DNA from: an uncultured Candidatus Binatia bacterium
GTDB taxonomy: Bacteria; Desulfobacterota; Binatia; UBA9968; JAJDTQ01
Assembly: GCA_965204205.1 (NCBI GenBank)
Contig: OZ241976.1
Span: forward strand, 2,343,333 to 2,407,332
DNA length: 64,000 bases
Reading direction: 5' to 3'
Shown here in pieces: positions 7,898-47,881 of this stretch. The position numbers were made by a program, and so were the translations under genes. Positions within the stretch are counted from its first letter, which is position 1. Each line of letters starts with the position of its first letter. The notes beneath the pieces were generated by a model. The model did no database searches. It had not been told where the DNA came from and saw only the letters and a program-made list of their open reading frames with translations.

Positions 7898-7920
7898 AGG
7901 GGCGACCGCGGGTCGCCCCT
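7898..7920. repeat. REP-like palindrome AGGGGCGACCGCGGGTCGCCCCT
   Basis: Perfect 9-bp stem with 5-nt loop. Member of a dispersed family with at least eight copies in the window. Confidence 0.5.
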
Positions 7921-7980
7921 ACGGGAGTCCACCTCAGCGTAGGACCCGGCCAATCATCCTCGAAAGCCCCGGTCACGCAC

Positions 7981-10329
7981 ATGAGCGACGCGGAAAGAGA
8001 CGGTACTAAGGCCAGGCGCGAGCCGCCGCTGGACTTCATCCGCACCATCGTGCGGGACGACCTCGCCGCCGGCAAGCACGCGGGCGGGGTGGTGACGCGT
8101 TTCCCGCCGGAACCCAACGGCTTTCTCCACATCGGCCACGCCAAGTCCATCTGCCTCAACTTCGGGGTCGCCGGAGAGTTCGGCGGGCGTTGCAACCTGC
8201 GCTTCGACGACACCGACCCCGCCAAGGAAGACACGCTTTTCGTCGAAGCCATCAAGGACAACATCCGCTGGCTGGGCTTCGACTGGGGAGAGGGCCTCTA
8301 CAACGCTTCCGACTACTTCGAGGAGCTCTACCGGTTCGCCGTGCAGCTCATCGAGCGGGGCGGCGCCTACGTCTGCAGCCTGAGCGAGGCGGAGATTCGC
8401 GAGACCCGGGGCACGGTGACGGAACCGGGCCGCGGGAGCCCGCACCGCGGCCGCGGCGTCGACGAGAACCTGGACCTCTTCGCGCGCATGCGCGACGGGG
8501 AGTTCCCGGACGGCGCCCACGTGCTGCGGGCGAAGATCGACATGGCGTCCCCGAACATGAAGATGCGCGATCCCGTGATCTACCGCATCCGCCACGTCAC
8601 CCACCACCACACCGGCGACGCCTGGCCCATCTACCCCATGTACGACTTCGCCCATCCGCTGTCGGATGCCCTGGAAGGCGTCACCCACTCGCTCTGCACG
8701 CTGGAGTTCGAGAACAACCGCGAGTTCTACGACTGGATTCTCGGACAGGTGGACGTCCCTTCCACGCCGCGCCAGATCGAGTTCGCCCGGCTGAACCTCG
8801 ACTACACCGTCATGAGCAAGCGCCGGCTGCTGGAGTTGGTGGAGGAGAAGCACGTAGCCGGCTGGGACGATCCGCGCATGCCCACCCTGGCCGGGCTGAG
8901 GCGGCGCGGCTACACACCGGAGGCGATCCGCAACTTCTGCCACAGCGTGGGCATCGCCAAGAGCGACAACACGGTGGAGATCGGGCAACTCGAGCACTTC
9001 GTCCGGGACGACCTGAACCACAAGGCGCCGCGGGTGTTGGCGGTGGAGCGGCCGCTCAAGGTGGTCCTCACCAACTTCCCGGAGGACCGCGTTGAGGAGC
9101 TGGAAGCCCCTTACTTCCCCCACGACGTTCCCAGGGAGGGTTCGCGCACCATCCCCTTTTCCCGCGAGCTCTACATCGAACGGGACGACTTCCTCGAAGA
9201 GCCTCCCAAGGGATACCATCGGCTGGCGCCGGGCCGGGAAGTCCGGCTGCGCTACGCCTACGTCATCCGCTGCGACGAGGCGGTCAAGGACCCCGACACC
9301 GGGGCGGTGCGGGAGTTGCGTTGTTCCTACGACCCGGAGACCCGGAGCGGCTCCGACAGGAGCGGCAAAAAGGTCCAGGGTACCATCCAATGGGTGTCCG
9401 CCGCGCATGCCCTGGAAGCCGAGTTGCGGCTCTACGACCGGCTGTTCTCGGCGCCGGACCCCCAGGGCGATCCGGGCCGCGACTACCGCGAGCTCATGAA
9501 CCCCCGGTCCCTGGAAACCGTCAGCGGCCGGGTGGAGCCGAGCCTGGCCGGCGCGCGTGCGGGCGACCGCTTCCAGTTCGAACGGCTGGGATACTTCTGC
9601 GTGGACCCGGACTCCACGGCCGATGCCCTGGTCTTCAACCGCATCGTGACGCTCCGGGACTCGTGGGCCAAGATCGTGCGGCGAGGCGAGGGCGGCGGAG
9701 AGCGCCGGCGTTCGCGCGGGACGCCGGCAGCCCGCTCGAGCGCCGGCAAGGTTCCGGCCCGGACGCGCGGACCCGTGGACCCGGGATTGCCGGCGGCCCG
9801 GCGTTCGCGCATGGAGCACTACCGCGACCGGTTGGGCCTCGCGCCCGGCGACGCGCTGCTGCTGGCCACGGAGGACGCCCCGGCCGCGTTCTTCGACGAG
9901 GCGGTCCGCGGCCACGACAATCCCAGGGCCGTGGCCAACTGGGTCGTCAACGAGTTGCGCCCGGCGCTGAAGGACAAGCCCCTGGAGTCACTGCCGCTGA
10001 CGCCGGCGGCGCTGGCGGAGCTGGTGGCTCTCATCGACGGCCAGGCCATTTCCGGCAACGCCGCCAAGCAGGTCTTCGCGATGTTGCTCGAGGACGGGGG
10101 GAGCCCGGCGGGGATCGTCGAAAGACTGGGGCTCCGCCAGGTGGCCGACGCCGGACAGATCGAGCCCGCGGTGGACGCGGTCATCGCCGCCAACCCGGCC
10201 AACGTCGCCCTCTATCGTGAAGGAAAGACCAGTCTGCTCGGATTCTTCGTCGGCCAGGTGATGAAATCCACCAACGGCAAGGCCGACCCCCGCCTGGTCA
10301 ACGAGTTGCTGCGCTCGAAGCTCGCGTGA
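7981..10329 (+). CDS. glnS: Glutaminyl-tRNA synthetase with C-terminal YqeY/GatB-like extension
   Basis: HIGH motif (FLHIGHAKS), VMSKR (KMSKS variant) and a class I core of about 555 aa. This is followed by a roughly 220-aa Arg-rich linker plus a YqeY-like helical domain, as in Deinococcus-type GlnRS. Confidence 0.9.
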
Positions 10330-10942
10330 CGGGCGGCAACGGCCGCCCCGGCCGCATGCGGGCGAACGTCGGCCGCCGGATGCCGCGACTGTCGGCCCTT
10401 TGGTGAAACCGAGGGCTGGAATCGCTCCTCCGTTTCCGGAACATCCGATGGCACCCCGAGCAGTTCTCCTGCAAACGCGCGAAGACGGCGTCGGGCGGCA
10501 TCGCCGCAAGCTCCCGCGGCGTAGGTTCCCCGGTGGCTGCGGGGGCGGCGCGGCCCGCCCCACGTTCATTGGATGCCGCCGCCGCCAACGCACCGGCGTA
10601 GTCGGTGAGTTGCCGCGCCATGGCGGAGAAACGCTCCCAATCGACCCATATCTCGGCCTTCGCCCGTGTCGGGTGTTGCAGGCTCCCTTCCGGGAACAAC
10701 GCGGTCAGCTTCTCGTCCCCGTGTCGGGCGATGATTCCCGCGTATGTCTTGACCCGTCCGGCATCGTAGGGTTGCCTTCCGCGCATCATCGCCCCTAAAG
10801 CCTTCATGGCTCGCCCCATGTCTTCCATGGCGTCCATGCGCTGCTTGACGATACCGGTGGCGCCGCGGTGTGCCAGCACCCCGGAGGAAGCCAACGGCAG
10901 CGTCAGGGCGACGGTAGCGGCCAACAAAACCTTCGGCAGCAT
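10298..10942 (-). CDS. Class II c-type cytochrome (cytochrome c'-like) with unusual C-terminal tail
   Basis: Signal peptide [24 protein letters not shown]. Single CSGCH haem site near the C-terminus. A 49-aa basic tail follows and overlaps the convergent glnS 3' end by 32 bp. Confidence 0.6.
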
Positions 10943-10961
10943 GGCGACGGCTCCGAGCACC

Positions 10962-46541: not shown

Positions 46542-46558
46542 GTTTCGCGTTCCGAAGA

Positions 46559-47845
46559 CTATCGGGGCATGCAGCAGCGCTTGTACTTGCGGCCGCTGCC
46601 GCAGGGGCAGGGGTCGTTGCGGCCGGCCGCGGGGCGGGCGGCGGCGTCCGCTTCGCGCACCAGGCGCATGACCTTTTCCATGGGTTCGCCGGCCTGCCAC
46701 AGGCCGGCCATGGTGCCAAGGTGCTCGCGGCTGTGGATGAAGAACTTCTTGTAGCCGGCGCACAGGTAGTTGAGGCCGTCCTCGCCGTCCGGGGTCTTGA
46801 TGAAGCGGTCCTTGGGGCAACCGCCGTTGCACTGGGCGCGGACCTCGCACTCGCGGCAGTAGCGCGGCAGCGAGGTCCACTTGTCGCGGCCGAACTGCCG
46901 CTGGGCGTCGCTGTCGATCATCCGCGCCAGGGAGGTGTCGCGGATGTTGCCGAGGCGGTAGCCCGGGTCCACGTAGTGGTCGCAGGAGTAGAAGTCGCCG
47001 TTGTGCTCCACCACCGGCACGTCGCCGCAGGTTTCCCTGAAGATGCACAGGGCGTGCTCGATGCCCAGGCCGGTGCGGGCCGCCTCGTCGAAGATCTGGA
47101 TGGTGACCCGGCCCACGTCGTTTCGGATCCACTCGTCGAAGATGGCGCACAGGAAGGTGCCGAAGGCCTCCGCGGGCACGCTGCGGGGGCTCACCGCCGC
47201 ATCCCCGGGAACCCGCTCCACCAGCGGGATGAACTGCTGGTGATCCGCGCCCAGGCTCTTGAAGTAGCGGTAGACCGTGGTGGGGTGGCCGACGTTGCCG
47301 GCGTGCACCACGCACAGCACGTCACAGGGCACCTTGTGGGCCCTGAGCCGCTTGAAGGCCTCCACCACCTTGCGGTGGGTGGGTTGCTGCCCCTTGGTGA
47401 CGCGGTACTCGTCGTGGAGCTTCTCCGGACCGTCGATGCTCAGGCCGATGGAGAAGCCTTCCTCGGCGAAGAACCGGCACCACTCGTCGTCGAGCAGCAC
47501 GCCGTTGGTCTGCATGCCGTTGCGGACCTTGCGGCCCGGCGTGGAGTGCTTGCGCTGGAGAGCGACGACCTCCCGGAAGTAGTCGAGGCCCAGTATGGTG
47601 GGCTCGCCGCCGTGCCAGGCGAAGTCGACGACCGGATCGGGGCACGCCTGGATGTGCTGCGAGATGTAGTCCTCCAGCACGTCGCGTTCCATGCGGAAAG
47701 ACTTCGTCTCGGGATAGAGGTCCTCCTTCTGGAGGTAGTAGCAGTAGACGCAGTCCAGATTGCAGATGGCGCCGGTGGGCTTCGCCATGATCTGGAACCC
47801 GCGGGAGGCGGGCGGCGGAACGGGCTTGATCAGTTCGATCGCCAT
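46559..47845 (-). CDS. Radical SAM/SPASM maturase (anaerobic sulfatase-maturating-enzyme-like) with C-terminal SEC-C motif
   Basis: CNLDCVYCYY radical SAM cluster. Cys-rich SPASM region (CxxCxxxxxC...CGGGC). Terminal CPCGSGRKYKRCC zinc-finger-like SEC-C motif. Confidence 0.8.
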   Translation of the reverse strand: MAIELIKPVPPPASRGFQIMAKPTGAICNLDCVYCYYLQKEDLYPETKSFRMERDVLEDYISQHIQACPDPVVDFAWHGGEPTILGLDYFREVVALQRKHSTPGRKVRNGMQTNGVLLDDEWCRFFAEEGFSIGLSIDGPEKLHDEYRVTKGQQPTHRKVVEAFKRLRAHKVPCDVLCVVHAGNVGHPTTVYRYFKSLGADHQQFIPLVERVPGDAAVSPRSVPAEAFGTFLCAIFDEWIRNDVGRVTIQIFDEAARTGLGIEHALCIFRETCGDVPVVEHNGDFYSCDHYVDPGYRLGNIRDTSLARMIDSDAQRQFGRDKWTSLPRYCRECEVRAQCNGGCPKDRFIKTPDGEDGLNYLCAGYKKFFIHSREHLGTMAGLWQAGEPMEKVMRLVREADAAARPAAGRNDPCPCGSGRKYKRCCMPR

Positions 47846-47857
47846 TGGAAAGGATGC

Positions 47858-47881
47858 AGGGGCGACCGGCCGGCCGCCCCT
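47858..47881. repeat. Degenerate REP-like palindrome AGGGGCGACCGGCCGGCCGCCCCT
   Basis: Same family with one stem mismatch. Between the amidohydrolase C stop and the rSAM start. Confidence 0.4.

Follow-up and report, generated by a model that had tools for sequence, protein, structure and literature searches.

What are the short GC-rich hairpins scattered between the genes of an uncultured Candidatus Binatia bacterium, and how did they come to be there? They lie in a 64,000-nucleotide (nt) stretch of contig OZ241976.1 (positions 2,343,333 to 2,407,332), which we call the window and number from its first letter. An earlier note had listed eight copies and assigned them to repetitive extragenic palindromes (REPs) or bacterial interspersed mosaic elements (BIMEs) rather than to intrinsic terminators. 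We found all eight in place, each in the form GGGCGACC-N3/4-GGTCGCCC, and our results support the assignment: the copies are dispersed, extragenic and GTAG-tagged, include an inverted doublet, turn over between related genomes, and share an identical 23-mer with the flanks of a gene for a REP-associated tyrosine transposase (RAYT) on a metagenome contig (locus L171). We conclude, with a probability of roughly 85%, that the copies are GTAG-tagged, short-perfect-palindrome REP elements of the REP/RAYT type. What is new is an ordinary REP family in a poorly studied soil lineage; less ordinary are its conservation across phyla and the copies in frame within RAYT genes. The only unusual point is that the hairpin recurs almost unchanged in many phyla and inside transposase genes.

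A dispersed family of tagged hairpins

The strict pattern GGGGCGACC-N3-6-GGTCGCCCC matched three times in the window, as compared to none in 100 dinucleotide-preserving shuffles. Allowing at most one mismatch per 8-bp arm yielded nine palindromes, namely the eight listed copies and one at 1936-1955. The half-site GGGCGACC occurred 24 times against an expectation of 9.4 ± 3.1. Because 15 of these 24 fell inside the eight listed copies and the other nine were singletons at chance level, the excess is entirely due to the palindromes. We called genes in this 66% GC window from third-position GC content (GC3) and checked many of them with Pfam. All nine copies proved to be non-coding, although 85% of the window is coding (0.148^9, about 3e-8).

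The invariant core of the family is GGGCGACC-loop-GGTCGCCC, with a loop of three or four nucleotides. As demonstrated by DNA folding, each of the nine copies forms a single hairpin (-9.9 to -16.5 kcal/mol, z scores of -3.1 to -6.4). The stem measures 8-9 bp, or 11-13 bp in copies with the tag on both arms, in which the palindrome continues through it. Six copies have a loop of 3 nt and three have one of 4 nt, in place of the 4-5 nt given previously, and the loops fall into three sub-types of three copies each: CGC/GCG, GGC/GCC and the symmetric GGCC.

Most copies carry a GTAG-type tag, which the earlier note did not mention. GTAG stands directly 5' of the stem at 7896 (on both strands), 23896, 23957 and 32857. 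Degenerate tags were found in the copies at 1932, 43622 and 47856 (GCAG) and at 40068 (GTAA), while the copy at 22779 is untagged. The orthologue of the 1932 copy in a related genome (L123) carries GTAG. The presence of GTAG, or of its degenerate forms GCAG and GTAA, beside the stem is a hallmark of RAYT-type REPs. Together with this tag, the hairpin, multiplicity, extragenic position and inverted dimer that characterize GTAG-tagged REPs were all found.

The copies differ in detail and in setting. The ninth copy (1932-1959, unoriented), a variant reading GCAGGGGCCACC-GGCC-GGTGGCCCCTGC with symmetric changes on both arms, folds at -16.5 kcal/mol and lies in a convergent spacer 33 nt past the stop codon (1899) of a tctB-like gene. 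The copy at 7896-7922 (GTAGGGGCGACC-GCG-GGTCGCCCCTAC, unoriented, with GTAG on both strands) sits, as claimed before, in a divergent spacer, between a glyoxalase-like gene (7366-7761, minus strand) and glnS (7981-10329, plus strand). The untagged copy at 22779-22805 on the plus strand (TTGGGGGCGACC-CGC-GGTCGCCCCCGA) starts 26-28 nt past the stop of a haem-oxygenase-like gene and precedes a bicupin gene. A minus-strand copy, GGGCGACC-GCC-GGTCGCCCCTAC at 32857-32881 with GTAG on the minus strand, occupies a convergent spacer 13 nt past an amidohydrolase stop (32844) and 49 nt past a GNAT stop (32930). The copy at 40068-40092 reads GTAAGGGCGACC-GGC-GGTCGCCCCA on the minus strand; it lies 71 nt past the stop of an M20 peptidase gene, within the apical part of a truncated transposon-like element described below. 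The copy at 43622-43646 (minus strand, CAGGGGCGACC-GCG-GGTCGCCCCTG, with GCAG on that strand) follows an amidohydrolase stop (43778) at 131 nt and precedes the likely start of a carboxylase gene (43553) by about 70 nt. Last, GCAGGGGCGACC-GGCC-GGCCGCCCCTGC at 47856-47883 (unoriented) has the single stem mismatch noted previously (GGCCGCCCC) and lies 16 nt past a stop at 47899 and 11 nt before a radical-SAM start at 47845.

The remaining two copies form a pair behind the bicupin (gentisate-dioxygenase-like) gene, in agreement with the earlier description. The left half, GGGCGACC-GGCC-GGTCGCCCCTAC at 23896-23922 (minus strand, with GTAG on that strand), starts 16-18 nt past the stop of this gene; the right half, GTAGGGGCGACC-GGC-GGTCGCCCTTGC, occupies 23957-23983 on the plus strand. 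Together they make an unoriented inverted doublet (23896-23983) with the GTAG ends pointing inward and a 34-nt spacer that has a small hairpin of its own. RNA folding of 23881-24048 (168 nt) paired the two REPs into one long stem at -99 kcal/mol (z = -6.0). This is the geometry of a BIME or of a REPIN, a mobile REP doublet. We rejected a tandem duplication as the origin of the pair: Tandem Repeats Finder found no tandem array, and the inverted-doublet fold is strong. Some singleton copies share a weak flank of about 35 nt on one side (a 3' module, z = 2.3-7.7 in pairwise comparison with shuffles), which may be a decayed partner REP. BLAST of the roughly 40-nt modules beside the REPs against all fetched loci returned only noise.

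Eight of the nine copies follow a stop codon at 13-131 nt, in co-directional or convergent spacers. For the listed copies, the distances are 28, 18, 79, 13, 71, 131 and 16 nt, and for the ninth copy 33 nt. The previous statement that six of eight lie within 10-50 bp of a stop therefore holds for four only, while seven of the eight are indeed downstream of one. Such placement recalls factor-independent "I-shaped" terminators, which are described in high-GC bacteria as GC hairpins that lack a U tract. If the copies had arisen in place at gene ends as such terminators, rather than as a mobile family, their position past stop codons and their very high stability would be accounted for; moreover, the GTAG end points toward the upstream gene in the five orientable copies, which is suggestive only (p about 0.06). 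However, this origin does not explain why near-identical sequences of 20-28 nt stand behind functionally unrelated genes (tctB, glnS, a haem-oxygenase-like gene, two cupins, amidohydrolases, GNAT, M20 peptidase, carboxylase and radical SAM), why they bear a conserved unpaired or extended GTAG tag, or why the same sequence recurs in about 15 phyla, Clostridia of 40% GC included. Two copies are also at odds with it by position, 7896 lying between divergent starts and 47856 only 11 nt before a start codon, and RAYT genes have this sequence both beside and within them. Moreover, as stated before, U tracts are lacking: none of the nine copies has a 3' T tract, and the 3' flanks read TACGGG, CGACGG, TACGAG, TTGCGG, TACGTG, TTACAA, TGCCCA and TGCGAT. 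A scan of 22-41 kb found five terminator-like sites, none of which coincides with a REP copy. Thus, we consider terminators arisen in place quite improbable, while the REPs may have a secondary role as terminators or stabilizers.

As REP elements, the copies would owe their dispersal to a transposase. A GTAG before a 20-50-nt palindrome is the published definition of a REP, and short perfect palindromes correspond to the "group 3" type (PMC8266576; PMC3733652); REPs of the same build, such as GTAGGTCGGCCTTCAGGCCGAC, appear in Table 1 of PMC2817692. The RAYT of Escherichia coli cuts single-stranded REPs and joins them again, for which it depends on GTAG, and group 3 enzymes act on short perfect palindromes (PMC8266576, PMC3333891, PMC3479197). 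In the mechanism that we propose, each window copy in single-stranded DNA would fold into a GC hairpin of 8-12 bp with GTAG, or its decayed forms GCAG and GTAA, in front of it, and this hairpin would be the substrate of a RAYT (TnpA-REP, an HUH/Y1 enzyme) encoded elsewhere in the genome. Cleavage and rejoining of single-stranded DNA beside the hairpin would disperse REPs singly or as inverted doublets (REPINs), the doublets being the mobilizable unit and the singletons remnants. The copies that persist would be those that cause the least damage, in the spacers shortly behind stop codons, which fits the mostly 3' position described for GTAG repeats (PMC3733652). Once transcribed, a copy would fold into a stable hairpin in the 3' part of the RNA, which may slow down 3' exonucleases or reduce read-through. 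A RAYT probably is or was active on the window copies, and the transcribed hairpins may have a role at the RNA level.

Turnover in related genomes and a second, transposon-like element

We compared the window with syntenic 22-kb loci of four related genomes (L121-L124). L121 contains no REP in this interval, while L122, L123 and L124 have one each, as compared to nine in the 64 kb of the window. The glyoxalase-glnS spacer shares the REP and about 90 bp around it between the window and L122, and the segment is missing in L121 and L123. Besides this spacer, three orthologous spacers are without REP in the relatives. Those after the haem-oxygenase-like and bicupin genes contain REPs in the window only, among the relatives compared; the spacers orthologous to the 22779 site measure 30 nt in L121 and 22 nt in L123 and lack a REP. 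Downstream of tctB, an orthologous copy is present in the window and in L123/L124, where it reads GTAGGGACGACC-GGCC-GGTCGCCCCTAC. Since copies at orthologous sites are present in some related genomes and missing from others, the family is subject to turnover.

A further observation concerns gene order. The haem-oxygenase-like and bicupin genes (22046-23880 in the window) lie directly upstream of tctCAB in all four relatives (100-5650 of L121-L124), but in the window they are 20 kb away from tctA/tctB (1-1899), and the borders of this rearrangement carry REPs (22779, 23896/23957 and 1932).

The tctB copy also reveals how the hairpin changes. Between the 1932 copy and its L123 orthologue, the tag differs by a T-to-C and the stem by a G-to-C change, each on both arms. 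Since the two copies differ by changes on both arms, the arms evolve in concert, via either selection for pairing or hairpin-templated repair. This bears on the idea that the copies are operator sites for a dimeric DNA-binding protein, of a regulon or a nucleoid-structuring kind, that are kept by selection for recognition of the duplex and do not owe their spread to transposition. Perfect dyad symmetry over 20-28 bp would suit such a protein, and E. coli REPs bind gyrase, IHF and Pol I (reviewed in PMC8266576). However, the compensatory stem changes, both in 1932 versus L123 and in the apical stems of REPs beside another RAYT gene (L009, see below), keep the pairing and not fixed bases. Furthermore, the sites lie past stop codons and not in promoters, and the neighboring genes (bicupin dioxygenase, amidohydrolase, M20 peptidase, radical SAM, tctB and glnS) are unrelated. 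We therefore regard operator sites as extremely improbable.

Two window copies are associated with a different repeat, a MITE-like element (miniature inverted-repeat transposable element) with terminal inverted repeats (TIRs) that begin TGTGGTGTCTGGTTAATTCGC and with CTAG flanks. A complete copy of this lineage-specific 158-bp element, on the minus strand at 1975-2139, has TIRs of about 38 bp and CTAG/CTTG flanks, contains no REP, and folds as a whole into one hairpin (-53.6 kcal/mol, z = -9.6); it adjoins the REP at 1932. The second, right-truncated copy (40041-40166, minus strand) is the one that contains the REP at 40068-40092. The M20 peptidase stop codon is part of the CTAG of this copy, which lies just upstream of a gene for an outer-membrane beta-barrel protein. 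Most copies of the element have a REP at one fixed position in the apical region. We also found the TIR element in L015, L033, L074, L093, L102, L123/L124 (about 9300-9480) and L213 (about 4350-4493), as well as on one IMG/VR contig (L247). Apart from L247, it was seen only in Binatia-type contigs, which comprise metagenome-assembled genomes (MAGs) of Candidatus Binatia, one MAG labeled Thermodesulfobacteriota, L123/L124 and one 68% GC metagenome contig. By this distribution, the window would probably be assigned to a Binatia-type bacterium. Spread of the TIR element across phyla is thus discarded, and Rfam has no match for it.

Could the REPs then be fragments of the apical hairpin of this TIR element, spread by its transposase? 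This would fit the nesting of 40068, the REP at the same internal apical site in L015, L033, L074, L093 and L123/L124, and the position of the 1932 copy, which abuts another TIR element. However, seven of the nine window copies have no TIR sequence around them, complete TIR elements without a REP exist (1975-2139 and L102), and the 1932 orthologue is present in L123/L124 at a site where the TIR element is missing. In addition, the two differ in range: many phyla have the REP, but the TIR element was seen in Binatia-type contigs only. REPs free of TIRs, TIR elements free of REPs and the wider range of the REP together indicate that the REP is the guest and the TIR element the host, and the reverse relation is very improbable. 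The REP itself is no MITE either: it is a hairpin of 21-28 bp with a 3-4-nt loop, has no TIR-bounded internal sequence, and shows no consistent flanking target duplication. A CRISPR array was likewise dismissed, as the copies lie 61 bp to 15 kb apart, scattered among genes. Rfam gave no match at gathering thresholds over the whole window and none at E <= 1 around 1850-2250, and megablast of 24 kb of the window against plasmids found no match.

The repeat in other phyla and in RAYT genes

A one-genome-per-species collection yielded at least 119 stretches with an exact match to GTAGGGGCGACC-N3/4-GGTCGCCC. A rough estimate gives fewer than about 40 matches by chance even if all 596 Gb had 66% GC. 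By record names, the matches fall into about 15 phylum-level groups: Chloroflexota, Acidobacteriota, Planctomycetota, Latescibacterota, Bacillota, Actinomycetota, Bacteroidota, Myxococcota, Desulfobacterota, Pseudomonadota, Gemmatimonadota, Armatimonadota, Fibrobacterota, Binatia and Goldiibacteriota. Among the matches listed are two cultured isolates and several contigs of only 40-45% GC. Many matches are inverted doublets or fully symmetric GTAG...CTAC palindromes. The pattern is also present in 94 stretches of viral or proviral contigs, in which no RAYT was found; these REPs neither support nor exclude transfer by phages. As a separate observation, a Coriobacteriales MAG (46% GC) has the same REP five times (L071, 2018-2981; L035, 7377-7593), spaced by about 120-140 bp with one gap of 560 bp; the flanks are conserved, and the cluster is BIME-like or a larger composite repeat.

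The window itself encodes no RAYT, as a profile built from 60 RAYTs and run against all six frames returned nothing at E <= 1. A link to such an enzyme comes from L171, a 70% GC metagenome contig, which encodes a 183-residue RAYT at 1239-1790 on the minus strand (PF01797, 29.4 bits with a cut-off of 23; NF047646, E = 1.6e-16). On both sides, this gene is accompanied by inverted doublets of GTAGGGGCGACCGGCGGTCGCCC. We found that this 23-mer is identical to the window copy at 23957 and to the reverse complement of the one at 32857. The L171 gene also contains a REP of its own, which is in frame and reads VGATGRSPL. The enzyme has at least 7,885 relatives, many of them named "REP element-mobilizing transposase RayT" by the Joint Genome Institute, and 65 of the best 120 have VGATGRSP after the HUH motif.

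A second RAYT came from the 119 loci, where the E. coli RayT query and motif regular expressions both matched L009 alone. This Oscillospiraceae MAG has a RAYT open reading frame (ORF) at 6555-7058 on the minus strand (E = 1.2e-8 with E. coli RayT; NF047646, E = 7.5e-17). It is flanked on both sides by REPs of the form GTAGGGGCG-NNN-loop-NNN-CGCCC with several apical stems (GACC, GATC, GAAC, GGGC and GCAT), and it has one REP in frame just after the HVH motif. At the same position, GR-x4-APT is present in 99 of the 120 closest relatives; GRPMVAPT, for example, is encoded by GGGCGACCAATGGTCGCCCCTAC.

These internal copies were further examined in a metagenome scan for the window REP followed by H-x-H codons, which gave 120 matches; in 101 of them, the REP is in frame with those codons. 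Among 46 distinct full-length gut-type ORFs with Y-x-x-N-P, 44 have a second internal REP-like hairpin 152-176 nt upstream. In L172, L138, L243 and L216, this second copy is in frame, GTAG-first and inverted, and reads VGATxGRP or VGAILDRP. Among RAYT proteins (P0131-P0370), the internal REP directly follows the HUH motif and is read as GRPxVAPT, VGATGRSP or RGDRPVAP. Two large clades are involved: in the soil clade, this copy is read as VGATGRSP or RGDRPVAP, and in the gut clade as GRPxVAPT. The gut clade usually has the inverted in-frame VGATxGRP upstream as well, so that its ORFs contain a REPIN-like pair on either side of the segment for the active site. Two or three internal copies stand in tandem in some RAYT proteins (P0146, P0154 and P0164). 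In L245 and L246, relatives from complete contigs (from 10001), the REP occurs twice in frame. The RAYT genes of these two loci (GC 0.59) are found in an unexpected setting: they separate hsdM from hsdS in type I restriction-modification loci that are syntenic (L245, 8037-19279; L246, 4563-18825), with toxin-antitoxin genes (HicA/HicB, PIN, DUF433) among their neighbors.

We propose, as a tentative and rather doubtful explanation, that the near-identity of GTAGGGGCGACC-loop-GGTCGCCCCTAC across about 15 phyla stems from the in-frame RAYT copy after the HUH motif, and that the window REPs could be its dispersed progeny. If this is true, such RAYTs would carry their own substrate within the coding sequence, and the internal copy could act as a protected master or as a self-regulating target. 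Confirmation would bear on the long-term matching of RAYTs and REPs. In the study of Bertels et al., association with REPs was judged by 16-mers in the extragenic flanks and proved strong in groups 2 and 3 only (PMC5581495). Internal copies would escape such a test; if they are confirmed, RAYT groups scored by their flanks as not REP-associated could be associated via these copies. We found no description of RAYT-internal REPs or the encoded peptides in the searchable literature, an absence that is no proof of novelty.

Several results weigh against assigning the window copies to a RAYT-driven family. Only five of the nine have a clean GTAG, even with the orthologue of 1932 counted in, and 22779 is untagged. 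There is a single doublet, the other seven copies being singletons, which the REPIN model regards as immobile remnants (PMC3116915). The RAYT profile that was run on the window also found no RAYT in L121-L124 (22 kb each) or in the fetched Binatia loci. Furthermore, at the density of the window (nine per 64 kb), the 4.77-Mb contig would contain several hundred copies, but the density in the relatives is much lower. The source genome nevertheless probably encodes a RAYT. In practice, REP elements is what the hairpins should be annotated as, in place of terminators or regulatory sites. The spacers marked by them are variable and can serve to type strains and to date rearrangements in this uncultured lineage.

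Relation to known systems and other features of the window

The window REPs are similar to the GTAG super-family (Di Nocera et al. 2013, PMC3733652; SMAG of Stenotrophomonas maltophilia; Nunvar et al. 2010, PMC2817692). Both are GC-rich stem-loops of 20-30 bp with a 2-4-nt loop and GTAG, or GYAG/GTRG, at one end, and both are extragenic, mostly located downstream of coding regions in unidirectional or convergent spacers. Singles are accompanied by head-head or tail-tail dimers 20-100 bp apart, sub-families differ by complementary stem changes, and distant phyla are involved. In contrast to the super-family, several window copies have the tag within the palindrome (GTAG...CTAC, both arms), and Binatia are absent from the species studied there. 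A search of the main text and supplements for GTAGGGGC/GGGCGACC gave no match, with the 24 GTAG family consensuses given there in a figure. Literature searches with the REP sequence and with the peptides that it encodes retrieved nothing relevant.

The group 3 REPtrons, or REPIN-RAYT systems, of Pseudomonas and Stenotrophomonas (Bertels & Rainey 2011, PMC3116915; Corneloup et al. 2021, PMC8266576) share with the window the short perfect palindromes after GTAG, inverted doublets whose halves pair in a single long hairpin, a RAYT presumably present in one copy, and long persistence at orthologous sites combined with presence/absence polymorphism. They differ in that the window has one doublet among nine copies and no cognate RAYT, and that RAYT clades with this REP have it inside the ORF and not only in the flanks. 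The REP/BIME system of E. coli with RayT (YafM, "group 2") is alike in its GTAG tag, extragenic position, proposed role as RAYT substrate and possible roles at mRNA 3' ends. However, E. coli REPs are longer (about 35 nt) and imperfect with an essential bulge (PMC8266576), while the window stems are short and perfect, and E. coli RayT detects the L009 RAYT only weakly (E = 1.2e-8).

The sub-terminal hairpins of IS200/IS605 insertion sequences (ISs) are likewise single-stranded DNA hairpins for a Y1 HUH transposase, with a tetranucleotide at the hairpin foot that guides the cleavage site. There, two different hairpin ends bracket the transposase gene and the whole unit is multicopy, whereas in the window the hairpin alone is multicopy and has no transposase gene beside it. 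Intrinsic or I-shaped terminators share the stable GC hairpin soon after a stop codon; unlike them, the window copies lack a T tract, form a near-identical GTAG-tagged family, and are in part found at non-terminator positions.

Apart from the REPs, the window contains a perfect 45-bp palindrome at 4310-4354 with 21-bp arms (GGCGCCCTTCGGCTTCGCGCC-GGC-GGCGCGAAGCCGAAGGGCGCC), located in the spacer that separates a minus-strand gene (start at 4264) from a NicX-like gene (start at about 4440). It is unrelated to the REPs, and no copy was found in any fetched locus. An island of lower GC (56279-60777, 58% versus 66%) includes an IS5-type transposase gene (DUF772 + DDE_Tnp_1, 56450-57388), an AAA_15/AAA_21 ATPase gene (57589-58965) and a complete IS (59456-60777), which has inverted ends of 19 bp (CAGTAGTGTCCGACAC...) and is bordered by a target duplication of 9 bp (GGCTCCACT). 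This IS has eight terminal bases in common with the TIR element (TAGTGTCC), but a link between the two was rejected, as the 9-bp duplication contrasts with the CTAG flanks. Last, the glutaminyl-tRNA synthetase encoded at 7981-10329 is fused to a C-terminal GatB/YqeY domain. Its close relatives share 81-89% identity, and the next matches drop sharply to 62%, a gap that marks a deep, poorly sampled lineage.

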